Source: a virus | Strand: one strand, 5' to 3' | DNA: 64,000 nucleotides | IMG/VR virus record: IMGVR_UViG_3300023171_000008 | Location: 38,558-102,557 of that record | Part shown: piece after piece, positions 34,887 to 63,578 of the stretch | Numbering within the stretch: the stretch's first letter is position 1 | Layout: every line of letters begins with the position of its first letter | The notes under the pieces: generated by a model | Databases searched by the model: none | Told to the model about the DNA's origin: nothing | Seen by the model: only the letters and a program-made list of their open reading frames with translations | Position numbers and translations under genes: made by a program

Positions 34887-34972
34887 GCAGCTATGGTGTA
34901 ACTGGTAGCCACGCAAGACTTAAAATTTTGTGAACAGTAATGTTCGTAAGGGTTCGACTCCCTTTAGCTGTA
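34887..34972 (+). tRNA. trnL: tRNA-Leu(UAA)
   Basis: Acceptor GCAGCTA/TAGCTGT, anticodon loop CTTAAAA, long variable arm GAACA..TGTTC, T-loop GGTTCGACTCC. Confidence 0.92.
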
Positions 34973-57222: not shown

Positions 57223-59049
57223 ATGAATAAATATAAAATAACAATAGGTTCTGATCCAGAAGTATTTATAGAAAATGAACAAGGTCAAGTAGTATCGGCA
57301 ATAGGATTAGTTCCAGGTACTAAACATGAACCACATCCAATAGACGATAAAGGTCATTTTATACAAACTGATAATATTGCATTAGAATATAATATTCCAC
57401 CATGTGATAATGAAGATGATTTTGTACATCATATACAGTTTGTTAAAGATTATTTAGAAGTTATTGCTGTTGCTAATGGTTATAAATTATCTACTAAAGC
57501 ATCTGAAGAAGTTGATTCTGTTTATTTACAAGATGATCAAGCTCGTATTTTTGGTTGTGAACCCTCACTTAATCCTTACACAAGATCAGTTAACGAGTCA
57601 CCAAATGCAAATACAAATTTAAGATGTGTTGGTAGAATATCTGCCTAGATATATAGAAATATATATCTGTAATTGGACAAAAACGGTGAATAAAAATTCA
57701 TAATTATTAGGAAATGTCATAAATTTTTCATATATTTGTATATATAAAATATAATTTATGATTGACAATTATTTTGATAAAATTGATTCTGATATTAAAG
57801 CTTATTTATTAGGCTTTTTTATTGCAGATGGTTGTATTAGCAAAAATAGTAGATGTACTAATAGTTATCGTTTTTCAATTAATATTTCTGATATAGATAG
57901 AGAAATTTTAGAAATTTATAAAAGTGAATTAATGACAAATAATAAAATTGTTACTTCACATTATAAAAAAGGAGCTATAAATAGAAAACCAGTATCATGT
58001 TTAAGATGGACTTCTGGTTATATGTTTGAAATGTTTAAAGTAAAATATAATATTAATCCTAATAAAACAAAGGATTTTAACTTTACTTTTAATTTTGAAT
58101 TAATAGATGAAGAATATTATTTTTCTTTTATAAGAGGATTTTTTGATGGAGATGGTCATATATCATATACTGACACTAATCAATTTACTTTCGCATTTTA
58201 TGCAACTTCTAAACCTTTTTTAGAACAAATTGGTAAAATATTTGAAAAAGAGTTTGATATAGAATATTTAATTAAGGGAACTATTAAAACAAATATAGAA
58301 TTATTTTGTTTAAGATTTAATTGTAACCAGAAAAGAAAATATTTTATAAAAAAATTATATGATAAATTTTACAGTAATTCTAAATTTTCTTTATTAAGAA
58401 AAAAATTAAAATTTGAAAAATATTTAAATACCGTGCTAAATTCTAATGGTAAAAAATTAGAATCAGTGTAACGCATAGGAGTTGATCCATAATTTAAGAG
58501 TCTTAGTGACTCTTTTTTTATGACTAAAATATTCCCACGAGTGTCCGACATCTGACTGTCTGCGAGATAAAAGATGAAAATATATGCTGAACTATAATGA
58601 ATGAATATAATTATAGAATCTAGGGATAAAAAGCCTTAGAGATAACAAAATTGGGACACATACATATCGGATATCCAGAAGCTAATCAAGAAACTTCTGA
58701 GAAAATTGTAAAAATGTTTGATATATTTGTAACACTTCCTGCTTTATTAATAGATAAAGATGATAGAAGACGTGAACTTTATGGAAAAGCAGGTGAATTT
58801 CGCTTCAAAGAACCTTGGGGATGTGAAGCAAGAGCTTTAAGTAACTTTTGGATACATTCTGAAGAAAATATTCGTTGGGTTTATAAACAAACTATAAAAG
58901 CTGTAGAATGTGTATTAGATGGTAATGCTGATGCATTATTTGATAAATATTCAGAACAAGTAGTTGAAGCAATTAATACTAATAATAAAGTATTAACTGA
59001 ATCATTATTATCTGAAATATTTGCTGGAGAAGAAGTATTAATAAACTAA
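57223..59049 (+). CDS. phiEco32-like COOH-NH2 ligase type 2, spliced (57223-57633 + 58654-59049; 268 aa)
   Basis: GSDPE, DN..LEYNIPP, FGCEP; splicing restores LRCVG|GHIHIG; RRELYGKAGEFR, EARALSNFW. Confidence 0.88.
57731..57738 (+). promoter_or_regulatory. Intron-internal Bacteroidota -7 promoter element
   Basis: TATATTTG about 20 nt before the endonuclease ATG; TTAG 20 nt upstream. Confidence 0.55.
57758..58471 (+). CDS. LAGLIDADG homing endonuclease (double motif)
   Basis: AYLLGFFIADG and FIRGFFDGDG. Confidence 0.9.
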   Translation: MIDNYFDKIDSDIKAYLLGFFIADGCISKNSRCTNSYRFSINISDIDREILEIYKSELMTNNKIVTSHYKKGAINRKPVSCLRWTSGYMFEMFKVKYNINPNKTKDFNFTFNFELIDEEYYFSFIRGFFDGDGHISYTDTNQFTFAFYATSKPFLEQIGKIFEKEFDIEYLIKGTIKTNIELFCLRFNCNQKRKYFIKKLYDKFYSNSKFSLLRKKLKFEKYLNTVLNSNGKKLESV

Positions 59050-59060
59050 AAAATAAATAA

Positions 59061-61001
59061 ATGATAATACTGATAGTATTAATCCTAGGTATATTACAAA
59101 TTCTATTAAATTTAATATTTAAACCTAATTATAATACATTAAATTGTGGTATATGGGGTCAAGCGAGTAATTCCACTAAAAAGATTAATGAATCTAATAT
59201 AAAAATATTAGGTTTGTTTAATGAATCTAGAGGTAAGAATTCTTGTGGTATAACTATAGATGGAGAGATTTATTATGGTTTAGATAAGGAAGCTTTATTT
59301 ACTAATTTTGCTAAGGGTAGGTCTATAAAGCCTACATTATATCCTACAGTAATTGGTCATACAAGACAGTCTAGTATAGGTGTGATTAATTCTTATAATG
59401 CACATCCATTTGGATTTGGAGAGAATAAAGATGGAGGTTATAAAATGTGTATCGTACATAATGGTACTTTATTAAATCATAAAGAATTAGCTGATAAATA
59501 TGAAGTATCTAAAGATATAGATTCTCCAAGTTTACATGTAGAGAATTTTAATGTTGTACGTACTAAAATTGATAGTGAAATACTAGGAGAAATTATATAT
59601 AAGACTGGTAATATCAAAGTATTAAGTGATTATAATGGTGCTGCCGCATTAGTATGGACTGATACAGATCATCCTAATGTAATTTATTTATGGAGTGGTA
59701 AAAGTCGTGCATGGTCAGATGATGCTGAAGATAAACAAGTTGAAGAACGTCCAATGTTTGTTTATATTGAAAGTAAGAATAATTTCTATTTTTCATCATT
59801 AGCAGAACCTTTACATGTTATTAGAAATAATAATGGTGAAATATTTCAAATAGATTATAATACTGTTTATACTGTTAAAGATGGTAATTTTAAAGAAGCT
59901 AAAAAGTTATTAGTTAGTAGAAAAGATAATTACCAAAGAGAAATTGTTAAATATACATCTTATACTGGAGGTTATAATTATGGTGATGATTGGGAAGATA
60001 GTCGGTGGCTTCAGAAGCCTAAAACTTCTGGTCAAACGGTTATTAATCTTCCTGCAGCTAAAGAAGAAGTAATTAATATATTTGACGATACTACTTTAAA
60101 AACTCAAAATGAGTATAAAGGTAAAGTTGTTAATAAAAAATTACGTTATTATAGAAATAATCATTTAATTAATGGTGTTTATACTAACATTATTAACTTT
60201 GATTTCTTTTATCTTGGAGATATTATTAAAGAAGCTAAAGCTCATTTTGGTACATTAGTTAATAAACCTTTTAATTATAGTACTGGAGAATTTGGTGATA
60301 TTGAAGATAAAGATTTATTTGAAACTCCATTTAAACATGACGCTCCTACATTATTTTATTTTGTAGAAGGTATAATGTTAAGAACAGAGCTTGATTATTT
60401 AACGGCATTAGCACCATTTAATATATTTAAAAATGGAGATAAATGGGATTATGAAAAGTTATCTCATGCATCAATGTTGCCAGTAGTAGATTTGACTTCT
60501 AAACCTTCAGATAGTAAACAAATGATATTAAAACATGGTGTAGAGTATAACGGTATTGTAACTGGATTAAACTTTGAGAAAAGATATGAAATTAGTAAAG
60601 GTAACTTAATTAAAATACTTCCATTAACGGCTGTAAACACTAATAGTGTAGTTAAATTAGCTAATAATGTTCATAGACCTATTATACTTAAAGAGTGTAT
60701 TAATTTTATCACTAATCTTGAGGAAAATATTGAAATTGAAGAAGTTGAAGAAGGTACTATTAAACAATTAGAACAAGACGATAAAGAATTCTTAGATAGT
60801 TTAAATGATAATATTGATAATATTGATTATGTAGCTGATGCAGTTGACGGTATATTAAATGATTGCTTAACTGGACCTTTAATTAAATTTCAAGATTATA
60901 AAGTTAAATTGAGTTATTATTTACCTCATGTAGAAGCTGTTAAAGCTCTTAAAGTTCTTGAAGATATGGAAAATGTAGTTGGTGAATTTATAAAAAACTA
61001 A
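59061..61001 (+). CDS. Class II (Ntn) glutamine amidotransferase with hydrophobic leader
   Basis: CGIWG at residue 29, RG..SCG, IGHTRQ, NAHPF, HNGTL, DSE. Confidence 0.85.
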   Translation: MIILIVLILGILQILLNLIFKPNYNTLNCGIWGQASNSTKKINESNIKILGLFNESRGKNSCGITIDGEIYYGLDKEALFTNFAKGRSIKPTLYPTVIGHTRQSSIGVINSYNAHPFGFGENKDGGYKMCIVHNGTLLNHKELADKYEVSKDIDSPSLHVENFNVVRTKIDSEILGEIIYKTGNIKVLSDYNGAAALVWTDTDHPNVIYLWSGKSRAWSDDAEDKQVEERPMFVYIESKNNFYFSSLAEPLHVIRNNNGEIFQIDYNTVYTVKDGNFKEAKKLLVSRKDNYQREIVKYTSYTGGYNYGDDWEDSRWLQKPKTSGQTVINLPAAKEEVINIFDDTTLKTQNEYKGKVVNKKLRYYRNNHLINGVYTNIINFDFFYLGDIIKEAKAHFGTLVNKPFNYSTGEFGDIEDKDLFETPFKHDAPTLFYFVEGIMLRTELDYLTALAPFNIFKNGDKWDYEKLSHASMLPVVDLTSKPSDSKQMILKHGVEYNGIVTGLNFEKRYEISKGNLIKILPLTAVNTNSVVKLANNVHRPIILKECINFITNLEENIEIEEVEEGTIKQLEQDDKEFLDSLNDNIDNIDYVADAVDGILNDCLTGPLIKFQDYKVKLSYYLPHVEAVKALKVLEDMENVVGEFIKN

Positions 61002-61002
61002 A

Positions 61003-63578
61003 ATGAGTAAAGAAAAAATAGTAACAACAATAAACAATGAGGAATTACCTATTACACAATGTAGAAGATTTGAAACTCTATATTATAAAATAGGTGATAT
61101 AAATGTTGAAAATTCAGGAGAATGTTATTTTGTAAGTAATAAATATTATAGATTTGAAACAGGTCAAATAGTATGGGATTATGAAAAACAACAATATGTT
61201 TTAAAAAACGATAATTTAATTAATGGTATTGTTAAACTTAATGAAAGCGATATTCAATTAGGTTACTTTACTAAAAGTGAAGATAATATACCTACTATAA
61301 CTCCTAATGGTACATATATGTCTTTAAATGAAGAAGTGTTTAAAGATAGTAAACTTTATCGTGAAAGATTATCTAATGGTCAATATTATCATATTGATTT
61401 ATTATCAGCTAAGGAATTTAATAGACTTAAAATTACAGATCAAGGATATAAACAGTCGTTACCTTATGACTCAAAGGGAATATTAGGACAATATCTTGAG
61501 AAATATAATAAGTTAGAAGTTGAACCTGGATATTATATTAATAATTATTCTAAGTTAATTGATAACTTATCATTTGGTCTTGAATTTGAAACATCTTCAG
61601 GTTTTATACCTAATAGATTATTAAATAAAGTAGGATTAATTCCACTTAGAGATGGTAGTATAACAGGTATAGAATACGTTACTGTACCTATGCAAGGTAG
61701 TAAAGGATTACAGACAGTTATTAATGCAGTAGATCTTCTTAAAAAGAGAACTGAGTATAATGATTCATGTAGTTTACATTTGCATATTGGTAATGTGCCT
61801 AGAACTAAAGAATTTATATTAGCATTTTTTAAAGTTACATGTGCATTACAAGATGAAATATTTAATATGTTTCCAATCTATAAGAAGTATAATTTTGGTG
61901 TTAAGAATAAAAACTATTCTAGACCTTATCCTACTTATGAGTTGTTATCTCAAATGGATCCTATAATTACTAGAAATAATTTAGATAGTAATTTTGATGT
62001 ATTATTTAAATACTTATCTATGGATTTAATGAACTTAAATTCTATTGGGAATGATTTAGATAATATCGAAGGACATCCTGCAGATTTACAAGGTAATCAG
62101 AAATGGAATATTAAAACACGTTGAGTAAAAATAGCGTAGCTATAAAGTAATTTATAGTAAAAAATATTGGGTGAATTCAAAGAAAGTCTTAATAAAATTT
62201 GTTTTTGTTGTAAAAATTTATTATATTTGTATATAATAATATTTATATGAAACAAGAAAAAGAATACTTAGAAGCAAATAAAAAACAATCAGTTAATTTA
62301 GTAGATTATCCTTATAAAAAAGGAGATAAAGTAGGTAATTTTATAGTAAATTCTGATAATTATGTTTATCATCATAAAAGATATCAAGTTGAATTAACTT
62401 GTGAATGTGGTAAAATAGTTTACAGAAGATTAAATAATATACTAAAATTAAAAAATATTTGGTGTTCAAAATGTAAAGGATATAATTTATATCCAGAAAG
62501 AAGAAAGTCTAGTGCATGGTTTACTAACGGTATTCACATACTTTGGTATAACGAAATAACTAGCAACTTACATAGAGGAAACAGAATAATAGATTGTAAA
62601 ATCAATATAGAAGATCTAAAAACTTTATATGACGATCAAAAAGGAATTTGTCCATATACAGGTATTTATTTAAATGTTTTAGATTTATTAAAAAAAGAAT
62701 CTAATGCTTCTATTGATAGAACAGATTCTTCAAAAGGTTATACTATGGATAATATTAAATGGGTTTATAAGCCTTTAAATATTATGAAAAATAGATATTC
62801 ATTAGAGGAATTTTTATTTGTTTGTAAAAAAGTTACAAATTTTACAGATAACTTTGAGCCAAGCTAACTAGGGATAGTTAGAAGGTGCAACGACTAGTAC
62901 ATGGAGTCTAGAACAGACAGTAAAGTACCACGAGCGCCCAACATCCTTGCGAAGGATGATGACATAGTCTGAACTATATAGAAATATATAGAAGATAGGA
63001 TAAAGAGCCTATCGATAACAAAATTGTATTATCATAATAACTTAATTCCGTTAATCTTTTGTAATAAAGCAACTATTGAATTCAGAGTACATACTTCTAC
63101 ATTTGATGTTAATAAGATTATTCCGTTTATATTTCTTAATTCATTTTTAATTAACTATACTATTCACAATCAAGAAGAAATATTAGCTAATCCTAAATTC
63201 TTAATTAAAAAAACTTTACAACATGTTATTGGTCATTGTACTAATGTAAATGATAACATTAAAGATCTAGGCTTATTAAGAGATTGTTTAAATATGTATG
63301 TTAACGAAAGAACTGTTTTTACTAGAAGTCAAAATGCTAATGGTAAGATAATGGGTGAAGAACATTTAATACCCTCATGTAGTTCTTACATTAACTGGAA
63401 TACTAAAGATCTTAAACCTAAAGCTTATGGTTTAGACGCTGATTTACAAGCTTATATTCAGAGAACAAAAGCTCAAATGAATTATGATCCCACAGTTAAT
63501 GTTAAAAAACCTGCAATGAAAGCTAAACCACAACCTAAACAACAGAATATTAATGCTGAAGATCATTTACCATGGTAA
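61003..63578 (+). CDS. Amidoligase (COOH-NH2 ligase superfamily), spliced (61003-62121 + 63027-63578; 556 aa)
   Basis: FGLEFE, DGSI, EYVT, SCSLHLHIG; splicing restores R|YYHNN...TIEFR.H. Confidence 0.85.
62198..62229 (+). promoter_or_regulatory. Intron-internal Bacteroidota promoter
   Basis: TTTG-N20-TATATTTG upstream of the HNH ORF. Confidence 0.65.
62247..62867 (+). CDS. HNH-type homing endonuclease
   Basis: CECG/CSKC N-terminus; CPYTG, SIDRTDSSKGY..DNI.WV...N.MK. Confidence 0.85.
   Translation: MKQEKEYLEANKKQSVNLVDYPYKKGDKVGNFIVNSDNYVYHHKRYQVELTCECGKIVYRRLNNILKLKNIWCSKCKGYNLYPERRKSSAWFTNGIHILWYNEITSNLHRGNRIIDCKINIEDLKTLYDDQKGICPYTGIYLNVLDLLKKESNASIDRTDSSKGYTMDNIKWVYKPLNIMKNRYSLEEFLFVCKKVTNFTDNFEPS

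Follow-up and report, generated by a model that had tools for sequence, protein, structure and literature searches.

The locus and its two interrupted ligase genes

The stretch analyzed here, referred to throughout as the window, comprises 64,000 nucleotides (bases 38558-102557) of the 102,557-bp IMG/VR record IMGVR_UViG_3300023171_000008, which is rated complete by CheckV. The record represents a crAss-like phage, and the same DNA is present in leaf-litter metagenome runs. At the locus under study, genes for an ATP-grasp (RimK-like) protein, a class I GATase/C26, a COOH-NH2 ligase, a class II GATase, an Amidoligase_2 and a UDG follow one another. This gene content and order are those of the crAss-like Cellulophaga phage phi14:2 and of cr108_1 (Steigviridae); the known counterpart is the amidoligase cassette of the phiEco32/LUZ24/7-11/phi14:2-type phages (Iyer et al. 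2009, as cited in PMC4431377), whose reference versions have no interruption. In phi14:2 and cr108_1 both ligase genes are uninterrupted, whereas in the window each falls into two pieces with another open reading frame (ORF) in between. The pieces of the COOH-NH2 ligase gene (the first ligase, lig1; ORFs 57223-57648 and 58651-59049) enclose an ORF of 237 aa, and those of the Amidoligase_2 gene (the second ligase, lig2; ORFs 61003-62124 and 63024-63578) enclose one of 206 aa. We describe here the two insertions, which we interpret as group I introns and term intron 1 and intron 2 (Table 1).

Long ORFs extend across the whole window under the standard genetic code. Each ligase scores above its curated Pfam cut-off, the scores being per exon, and each is present in a single copy in the genome. 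The Amidoligase_2 is 38% identical to phi14:2 g041 over 99% of its length.

Exon junctions and reading frames

Joining position 57633 to 58654 and position 62121 to 63027, i.e. removing 1020 and 905 nt, yields a COOH-NH2 ligase of 268 aa and an Amidoligase_2 of 556 aa. The joined exons read ...NLRCVG|GHIHIGY... and ...KWNIKTR|YYHNNLIPLIFCNKATIEFR..., and the joined proteins align to those of phi14:2 and cr108_1, and to those of about 70 intron-less IMG/VR relatives, with no insertion or deletion at either joint. We surveyed 78 IMG/VR loci with a relative of the second ligase (loci are given L numbers below). In nearly all of them the exon ends abut at a 0-nt gap in both genes, the exceptions being L123, L144 and L178 for the first ligase, with offsets of 3-12 nt in a few distant loci, and L155 and L178 for the second. 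A preliminary description of the window, made from the sequence alone, had proposed these coordinates, lengths and junction residues, and they prove to be exact, since the homologs abut at those very codons. It had also noted a U.G pair in P1 and a terminal G in both introns. This agrees with our assignment, in which the final exon base is a T paired with a G of the internal guide and the final intron base is a G in each case. The dependence of both ligases on splicing, which it had proposed as well, follows from both genes being single copy and whole only after intron removal.

The exon-1 frames are closed by stop codons 0-5 codons into the introns, and the only start-type codon heading each exon-2 frame is the TTG that ends the conserved 3' tail of the introns. 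An intein reading was rejected on account of these stop codons, and a group II intron was rejected because there is no reverse transcriptase and the core is of the group I type.

The preliminary description further held that the introns split the active sites of both ligases. The residues flanking the junctions are indeed well conserved: G137, H139, R373 and Y374 are each conserved in at least 90% of the sequences in alignments of 56 and 66 homologs. The 8-residue windows centered on the junctions are not among the most conserved, ranking 34 of 261 and 197 of 549. The HxH motif follows intron 1 at a distance of one codon, and E391-F-R393 (ExR) follows intron 2 at a distance of 17 codons. Both motifs would be catalytic by analogy with the residues that bind metal and phosphate in gamma-glutamylcysteine ligase and glutamine synthetase. 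Searching the PDB by sequence with both ligase profiles revealed no solved relative, so that the putative catalytic role of the junction residues depends on this analogy and the claim holds in its conservation part. Comparison of the two ligase profiles with hhalign was not significant, though the two HxH motifs were paired, and the introns do not occupy equivalent positions of the fold.

Ribozyme core of the introns

At the gathering score, Rfam gave no intron match in the window, and an E-value scan of 6.5 kb missed even intron 2. The sole Rfam match at gathering level in the window is a tRNA with a long variable arm (positions 34887-34972; RF00005, 50.7 bits). When a short stretch was scanned, intron 2 matched the group I model RF00028 with 45.4 bits (E 1e-10) over positions 62790-62991, with alignment of J6/7, P7, P3', P8, P7' and P9. 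An ORF-less insert of 307 nt at the same R|Y codon in L075 (9019-9325) reaches 88.3 bits on the same model. The covariance search that had been suggested as a check gives intron 2 a match that stays below the gathering score of 50 bits.

Intron 1 and its ORF-less relatives gave no Rfam match, among them an intron of 438 nt at G|GH in L144 (5294-5731) that has AT-rich filler in place of the ORF; the structure of intron 1 was therefore tested directly. From an alignment of the 3' halves of 23 family members (alignment A3), RNAalifold predicted P6, P7, P7.1, P8 and P9.1 unaided, with double compensatory changes in 25 of the 30 pairs. Paired cells amount to 95.7% in this structure, versus 68% in shuffled alignments and 29-43% when the partners are slid, showing that the ribozyme features are not a chance pattern. 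For the 5' half, the P3' and P4' strands were taken by alignment column, and each of eight introns was searched for their complements from its first nucleotide to nucleotide 95. In all eight, the best-matching strands lie upstream of the ORF in the order P3 (7 bp), J3/4 (3 nt, AAA/AAT) and P4 (5-6 bp), with compensatory differences between introns. All eight also have a U.G at the splice site in P1, and P10 follows the first bases of exon 2 (3 bp in intron 1 and 4 bp in intron 2). Within the lineage at the lig2 site, exon position -4 and its guide partner co-vary (A-T, G-C, T-A).

A covariance model built from intron-1-type cores only (R1, from alignment A6) was then applied to sequences outside its seed, where it scored intron 2 at 97.2 bits, the L075 intron at 76 bits and two Staphylococcus introns at 46-49 bits; in the whole genome it has exactly two matches. 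Because R1 detects these introns, some of them verified by Rfam, its scores indicate that intron 1 has the same catalytic core as verified group I introns. The group I models thus divide over intron 1, which is missed by RF00028 and connected to the verified introns by R1, and we conclude that RF00028 is insensitive to its subtype. This subtype (P7 GCATA/TATGC, J6/7 GTAAC; 130-150 bits on R1), whose compact ORF-less members are missed by RF00028 as well, is seen in phiCD211 (L006:2358-2628), in L144 and in the window (58429-58653).

The helix coordinates place both endonuclease ORFs between the P4 strands, i.e. in the P5 arm, and running into the core, in accordance with the preliminary description. 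Both extend into P4'. The last 14 codons of the intron-1 ORF overlap P4', P6 and J6/7, with its TAA stop inside J6/7, while the stop codon of the intron-2 ORF lies in the 5' strand of P6. A P7.1 hairpin lies between P7 and P3' in both introns; together with their likeness to Twort-type introns, this suggests that both belong to subgroup IA2.

Table 1 Features of the two interrupted ligase genes, in window coordinates.
Feature	Position	Strand	Basis or detail
COOH-NH2 ligase (PF14395 type), exon 1	57223..57633	+	137 codons, ends ...NLRCVG; aligns to N-terminal half of phi14:2 g039, cr108_1 ligase and 60 intron-less IMG/VR homologs
Intron 1, P1	57631-57636 with 57640-57645		U57633.G57643
Intron 1 (group I, 1020 nt)	57634..58653	+	R1 138.9 bits
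Intron 1, 5' ribozyme part	57634-57688	+	
Intron 1, P2	57647-57655/57660-57668		GAAA loop
Intron 1, P3 5' strand	57673-57679		
Intron 1, P4 5' strand	57683-57688		
Intron 1 ORF, two-motif LAGLIDADG, 237 aa	57758..58471	+	PF14528 E 1.5e-16, 60.8 bits, 2 stretches; phrog_4645 E 4.8e-32
Intron 1, 3' ribozyme core	58429..58653	+	Covariation and alignment columns
Intron 1, P4'	58429-58434		
Intron 1, P6	58441-58446/58457-58462		
Intron 1, J6/7	58468-58472		
Intron 1, P7	58473-58477/58583-58587		
Intron 1, P7.1	58479-58482/58531-58534		
Intron 1, P3'	58542-58548		
Intron 1, P8	58549-58553/58572-58576		
Intron 1, P9 hairpin	inside 58588-58618		
Intron 1, P9.1	58619-58625/58634-58640		Followed by tail to terminal G 58653
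COOH-NH2 ligase, exon 2	58654..59049	+	131 codons + stop, starts GHIHIGY; PF14395 31 bits (cut-off 25)
Amidoligase_2 (PF12224), exon 1	61003..62121	+	373 codons, ends ...KWNIKTR; PF12224 23.8 bits (cut-off 22)
Intron 2, P1	62118-62121 with 62134-62137		U62121.G62134
Intron 2 (group I, 905 nt)	62122..63026	+	RF00028 45.4 bits; R1 97.2 bits
Intron 2, P10 guide	62130-62133 with 63027-63030		
Intron 2, P2	62140-62146/62151-62157		GTAA loop
Intron 2, P3	62167-62173/62935-62941		
Intron 2, P4	62177-62182/62852-62857		
Intron 2, P5 (tentative)	62186-62189/62846-62849		
Intron 2 ORF, N-terminal Cys4 zinc-finger/beta domain and C-terminal HNH-like domain, 206 aa	62247..62867	+	phrog_3322, phrog_1035, phrog_3118
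Intron 2, 3' ribozyme core	62852..63026	+	RF00028 alignment, covariation
Intron 2, P4'	62852-62857		
Intron 2, P6	62864-62869/62877-62881		
Intron 2, J6/7	62887-62891		
Intron 2, P7	62892-62896/62965-62969		
Intron 2, P7.1	62898-62901/62924-62927		
Intron 2, P3'	62935-62941		
Intron 2, P8	62942-62946/62954-62958		
Intron 2, P9 hairpin	inside 62970-62993		
Intron 2, P9.1	62994-62999/63008-63013		Terminal G 63026
Amidoligase_2, exon 2	63027..63578	+	183 codons + stop, starts YYHNNLIPLIF...TIEFRVH; alignment, weak PF12224 continuation (profile positions 176-241)

Endonuclease genes

The two ORFs encode mutually unrelated proteins, as had been stated in the preliminary description, which called one a LAGLIDADG and the other an HNH endonuclease. 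The first name is confirmed by the PF14528 match of the intron-1 ORF and by its two motifs. Homologs with 36-57% identity are found in introns of the same ligase gene in L075, L078 and L123.

The second name requires qualification. The intron-2 ORF matches PHROG families named endonuclease, endonuclease VII and HNH endonuclease, whereas it has no match in Pfam or NCBIfam, and a phmmer search of the PDB returned nothing. Its family counts at least 66 relatives in the protein collection (P0002-P0066 among them), none with a Pfam domain; homologs P0002-P0013 are 57-67% identical to it. The family keeps four Cys residues and the motif A-S-x-D-R-x-D-S-x-x-G-Y...N...N..K. In an alignment of 18 members (alignment A1), D157-R158...N169...N178..K181 are invariant, and an Arg is found where HNH enzymes have the catalytic His. 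In an AlphaFold (AF2) model of the protein, with a mean pLDDT of 77, the C-terminal domain appears to adopt a beta-beta-alpha-metal fold. The best Foldseek matches of this model are the HNH domain of Cas9, Gme HNH and PacI (E 4e-3 to 0.1), and VIA-align gave moderate scores, with Z values of 8.1 for PacI and 7.4 for Gme HNH. Given an HNH-like fold together with the lack of a curated HNH profile match (Pfam/NCBIfam) and the replacement of the catalytic His by Arg, we term the protein HNH-like rather than canonical HNH. The absence of the canonical His makes its activity uncertain. At its N-terminal end the model shows a likeness to beta barrels of the Tudor/CarD type (Z about 4).

A TATATTTG box, which resembles the Bacteroidota -7 type (TAnnTTTG), is present at 57731-57738 and at 62222-62229, 18-20 nt upstream of the ATG of each endonuclease gene, and similar boxes precede the endonuclease ORFs in L078 and L155. 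The boxed stretch also matches positions 436-478 of the genome. The TAnnTTTG 8-mer is not enriched in the window, with 110 occurrences found versus 114 expected.

Interpretation and alternatives

Taken together, the data make it highly probable that both amide-ligase genes of this crAss-like phage contain a mobile group I intron, each with its own homing-endonuclease gene in the P5 arm. In the transcript, each intron would fold into a P1-P10 group I core, and free guanosine would attack after U57633 or U62121, the base that forms the U.G wobble with the internal guide. The 5' exon released in this way would next attack after the terminal G (58653 or 63026), giving mRNAs for the complete COOH-NH2 ligase and Amidoligase_2. 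Homing would follow from cleavage, by the LAGLIDADG and HNH-like proteins, of intron-less alleles of these genes carried by co-infecting relatives, with the intron copied into the cut allele during repair.

Several observations weigh against this interpretation. The score of intron 2 on RF00028 is below the gathering score of 50, its ORF splitting the model, and RF00028 matches neither intron 1 nor the ORF-less relatives of intron 1 in L144 and phiCD211. The P1 of intron 1 is short, its exon part and its intron side contributing 3 bp each. As both ORFs extend into core helices, translation could disturb folding and vice versa. In the HNH-like protein the canonical catalytic His is lacking. Finally, the runs that contain this DNA are five DNA runs (leaf litter and soil), with no RNA run listed.

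We weighed this interpretation against others. Phage genes that are split by endonuclease genes are known, and a TTG codon stands ahead of each second exon; the ligases might then be split, with no intron at all, by free-standing endonuclease genes into separately translated halves that assemble after translation. However, a conserved, covarying ribozyme structure flanks both ORFs, the TTG belongs to an RNA tail found throughout the intron family, and ORF-less versions are present at exactly the same codons (in L144, and in L075, where the insert is recognized by Rfam with 88 bits), which leaves this explanation very improbable. Another alternative accepts the introns as real and supposes that one or both no longer self-splice, either through decay or because they need a protein helper such as a LAGLIDADG maturase, in which case the ligase would be lost or conditional on that protein. 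This possibility gains support from the short P1 of intron 1 and its lack of an Rfam match, from the overlap of the ORFs with the core, and from the precedent of LAGLIDADG maturases in organelle introns. Against it, no core helix is disrupted in either intron, open reading frames and conservation are retained in the exons, and R1 gives 139 and 97 bits over the full model; we regard it as unlikely, though clearly less so than the split-gene explanation.

The origin of the pair is a separate matter. The preliminary description called the two introns sisters on the basis of very similar 3' ends, and the similarity itself is real: the 3' ends are 74% identical over 84 nt (E 2e-6 within the genome). 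Helix order and ORF position are also the same in both introns, which are separated by 3.5 kb within a single operon. Such a pair could have arisen if one intron had recently been derived from the other, by duplication or transposition in this genome, and had then exchanged its endonuclease gene. The shared 3' motif consists of P9.1, whose loop reads ATAAARAG, and of the conserved tail of 13 nt that runs to the terminal G; more than 110 IMG/VR viral contigs have it, in a wide variety of genes. Identity between the two introns is just 38% in their final 175 nt, and they rank 82nd and 75th among each other's neighbors in a family of 98. By the same measure, intron 1 is nearest to L123 (83%) and L144 (76%), and intron 2 to L111 (66%) and to L020 and L155 (59%). 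Distant phages, moreover, have relatives at the same sites with endonucleases of the same type. At the G|xHxH site, LAGLIDADG introns are found in L075 and L078 and an ORF-less intron in L144. The R|Y site is occupied by HNH-like introns in L078 and in L155, the latter likewise 905 nt long, and by an ORF-less intron in L075. Like the window, L075 and L078 have introns in both ligase genes, with exons only 34-42% identical to those of the window. In L078 the exon identity is 34-38%, from which we infer that the two lineages have long been separate. The term sister is thus not sustained, and a recent duplication in this genome is hardly credible. The sequence comparisons instead indicate that both introns belong to one large IA-type (P7.1) phage intron family, within which each represents a separate lineage linked to a particular insertion site and a particular type of endonuclease.

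Paired introns of this family are seen elsewhere: phiCD211 (L006:2358-2916) has two back to back before its tape-measure gene, and L018 and L072 have two R1 matches each.

Distribution and mobility

Either intron is present in only about 5% of related phages. In 1.2 Mb of ligase-cassette loci, full cores are found only in L178 (two), L123, L144, L155, L189 and L190, and the closest relatives of the host genes are intron-less: L118-L121 (57-58% identity in lig2) and L130 (63-69% in lig1). The endonucleases are more similar to those of the window than the genes around them. In L155 the endonuclease is 61% identical versus 39-44% for the host genes, and in L123 it is 57% identical versus about 45% for the host gene. 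This patchy distribution fits homing. The ligase pathway may be important enough to sustain it, as the preliminary description proposed.

The intron of L123 (L123:4525-5586; IMGVR_UViG_3300012003_000002) has 83% identity to intron 1 in its final 175 nt, and its LAGLIDADG ORF is 57% identical to that of the window. It sits 26 codons upstream in the same ligase gene, between the G and CEP of FGCEP and not at G|GHIH. The 5' exons of L123 and the window both end in TGGT. This looks like a switch of target site within one gene. Short R1 matches (72-94 nt, 41-50 bits) also occur in the intron-less loci L118 (4403-4474), L131 (1657-1740), L147 (4782-4858), L125 (3050-3133) and L192 (4497-4590); they could be intron remnants or small related elements.

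A bolder proposal, which we put forward only tentatively and think may well be wrong, is that the ligase cassette of crAss-like phages is a preferred landing zone of this intron family, where endonucleases change target from one conserved codon to another within the same gene (G|GHIH in the window and FG|CEP in L123), with the Arg-for-His HNH-like family being active through a changed catalytic center. If true, these loci would offer a natural series for the study of target shifts by homing endonucleases.

In the cassette itself, the Amidoligase_2 ends in some 40-60 residues with a high K, P and Q content (window positions 63400-63578), a tail that is absent from phi14:2 and cr108_1. A search of viral contigs with the class II GATase as the single query protein revealed no close relative. 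The introns give no clue to the product of the cassette.

Relation to known introns and significance

The introns of the T4 td, nrdB and sunY genes (with I-TevI, I-TevII and I-TevIII) are likewise IA-type and have P7.1. Each has a peripheral loop that houses a free-standing endonuclease ORF, which apparently has a promoter of its own, and these introns are inserted beside conserved residues and spread by homing. They differ from those described here in their host genes, their endonuclease families (GIY-YIG, and HNH with the His) and their loop positions.

The group I introns of Twort-like Staphylococcus phages (Herelleviridae; Silviavirus PV017447, tandem, annotated Intron_gpI) score 88-98 bits on RF00028. 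The P7'-P9-P9.1 tail of intron 2 is 87% identical to theirs over 67 nt, and P7 (GACTA/TAGTC), J6/7 and the terminal motif are shared. In contrast to the introns of the window, which have endonuclease genes in P5 and occupy ligase genes of a crAss-like phage, the Staphylococcus introns are ORF-less, measure about 230-290 nt and lie in a virion-protein gene in the phage of a Gram-positive host.

For crAss-like phages, group I introns bearing endonucleases have been reported in genes for MCP, PolB, primase, ATP_43b and RNAP subunits, mainly in the Delta and Zeta groups, ligases being unmentioned (Yutin et al. 2021, PMC7886860). Those of cr6_1 and cr111_1 belong to the same phage order and intron family as the introns of the window, have the same 3' signature and carry LAGLIDADG or other endonuclease ORFs in conserved host genes; the ORF of cr111_1 is placed after P7, whereas those of the window are in P5.

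The introns of the window are thus ordinary mobile elements of a well-known phage kind. Four features are of modest interest, namely that the host genes are new, that the pair of introns recurs in distant phages, that Rfam is blind to the subtype of intron 1, and that one endonuclease family has Arg in place of His. For annotation, the four ORF pieces represent two genes, and splicing is needed for an intact cassette. Since gene callers and Rfam both miss introns of the intron-1 type, these are probably under-counted in crAss-like and other phages; they can be detected with R1 or by the 3' signature.

In summary, auxiliary amide-ligase genes join the list of phage genes invaded by group I introns, and two site-specific intron/endonuclease lineages recur across phages whose ligase exons are only 34-45% identical.

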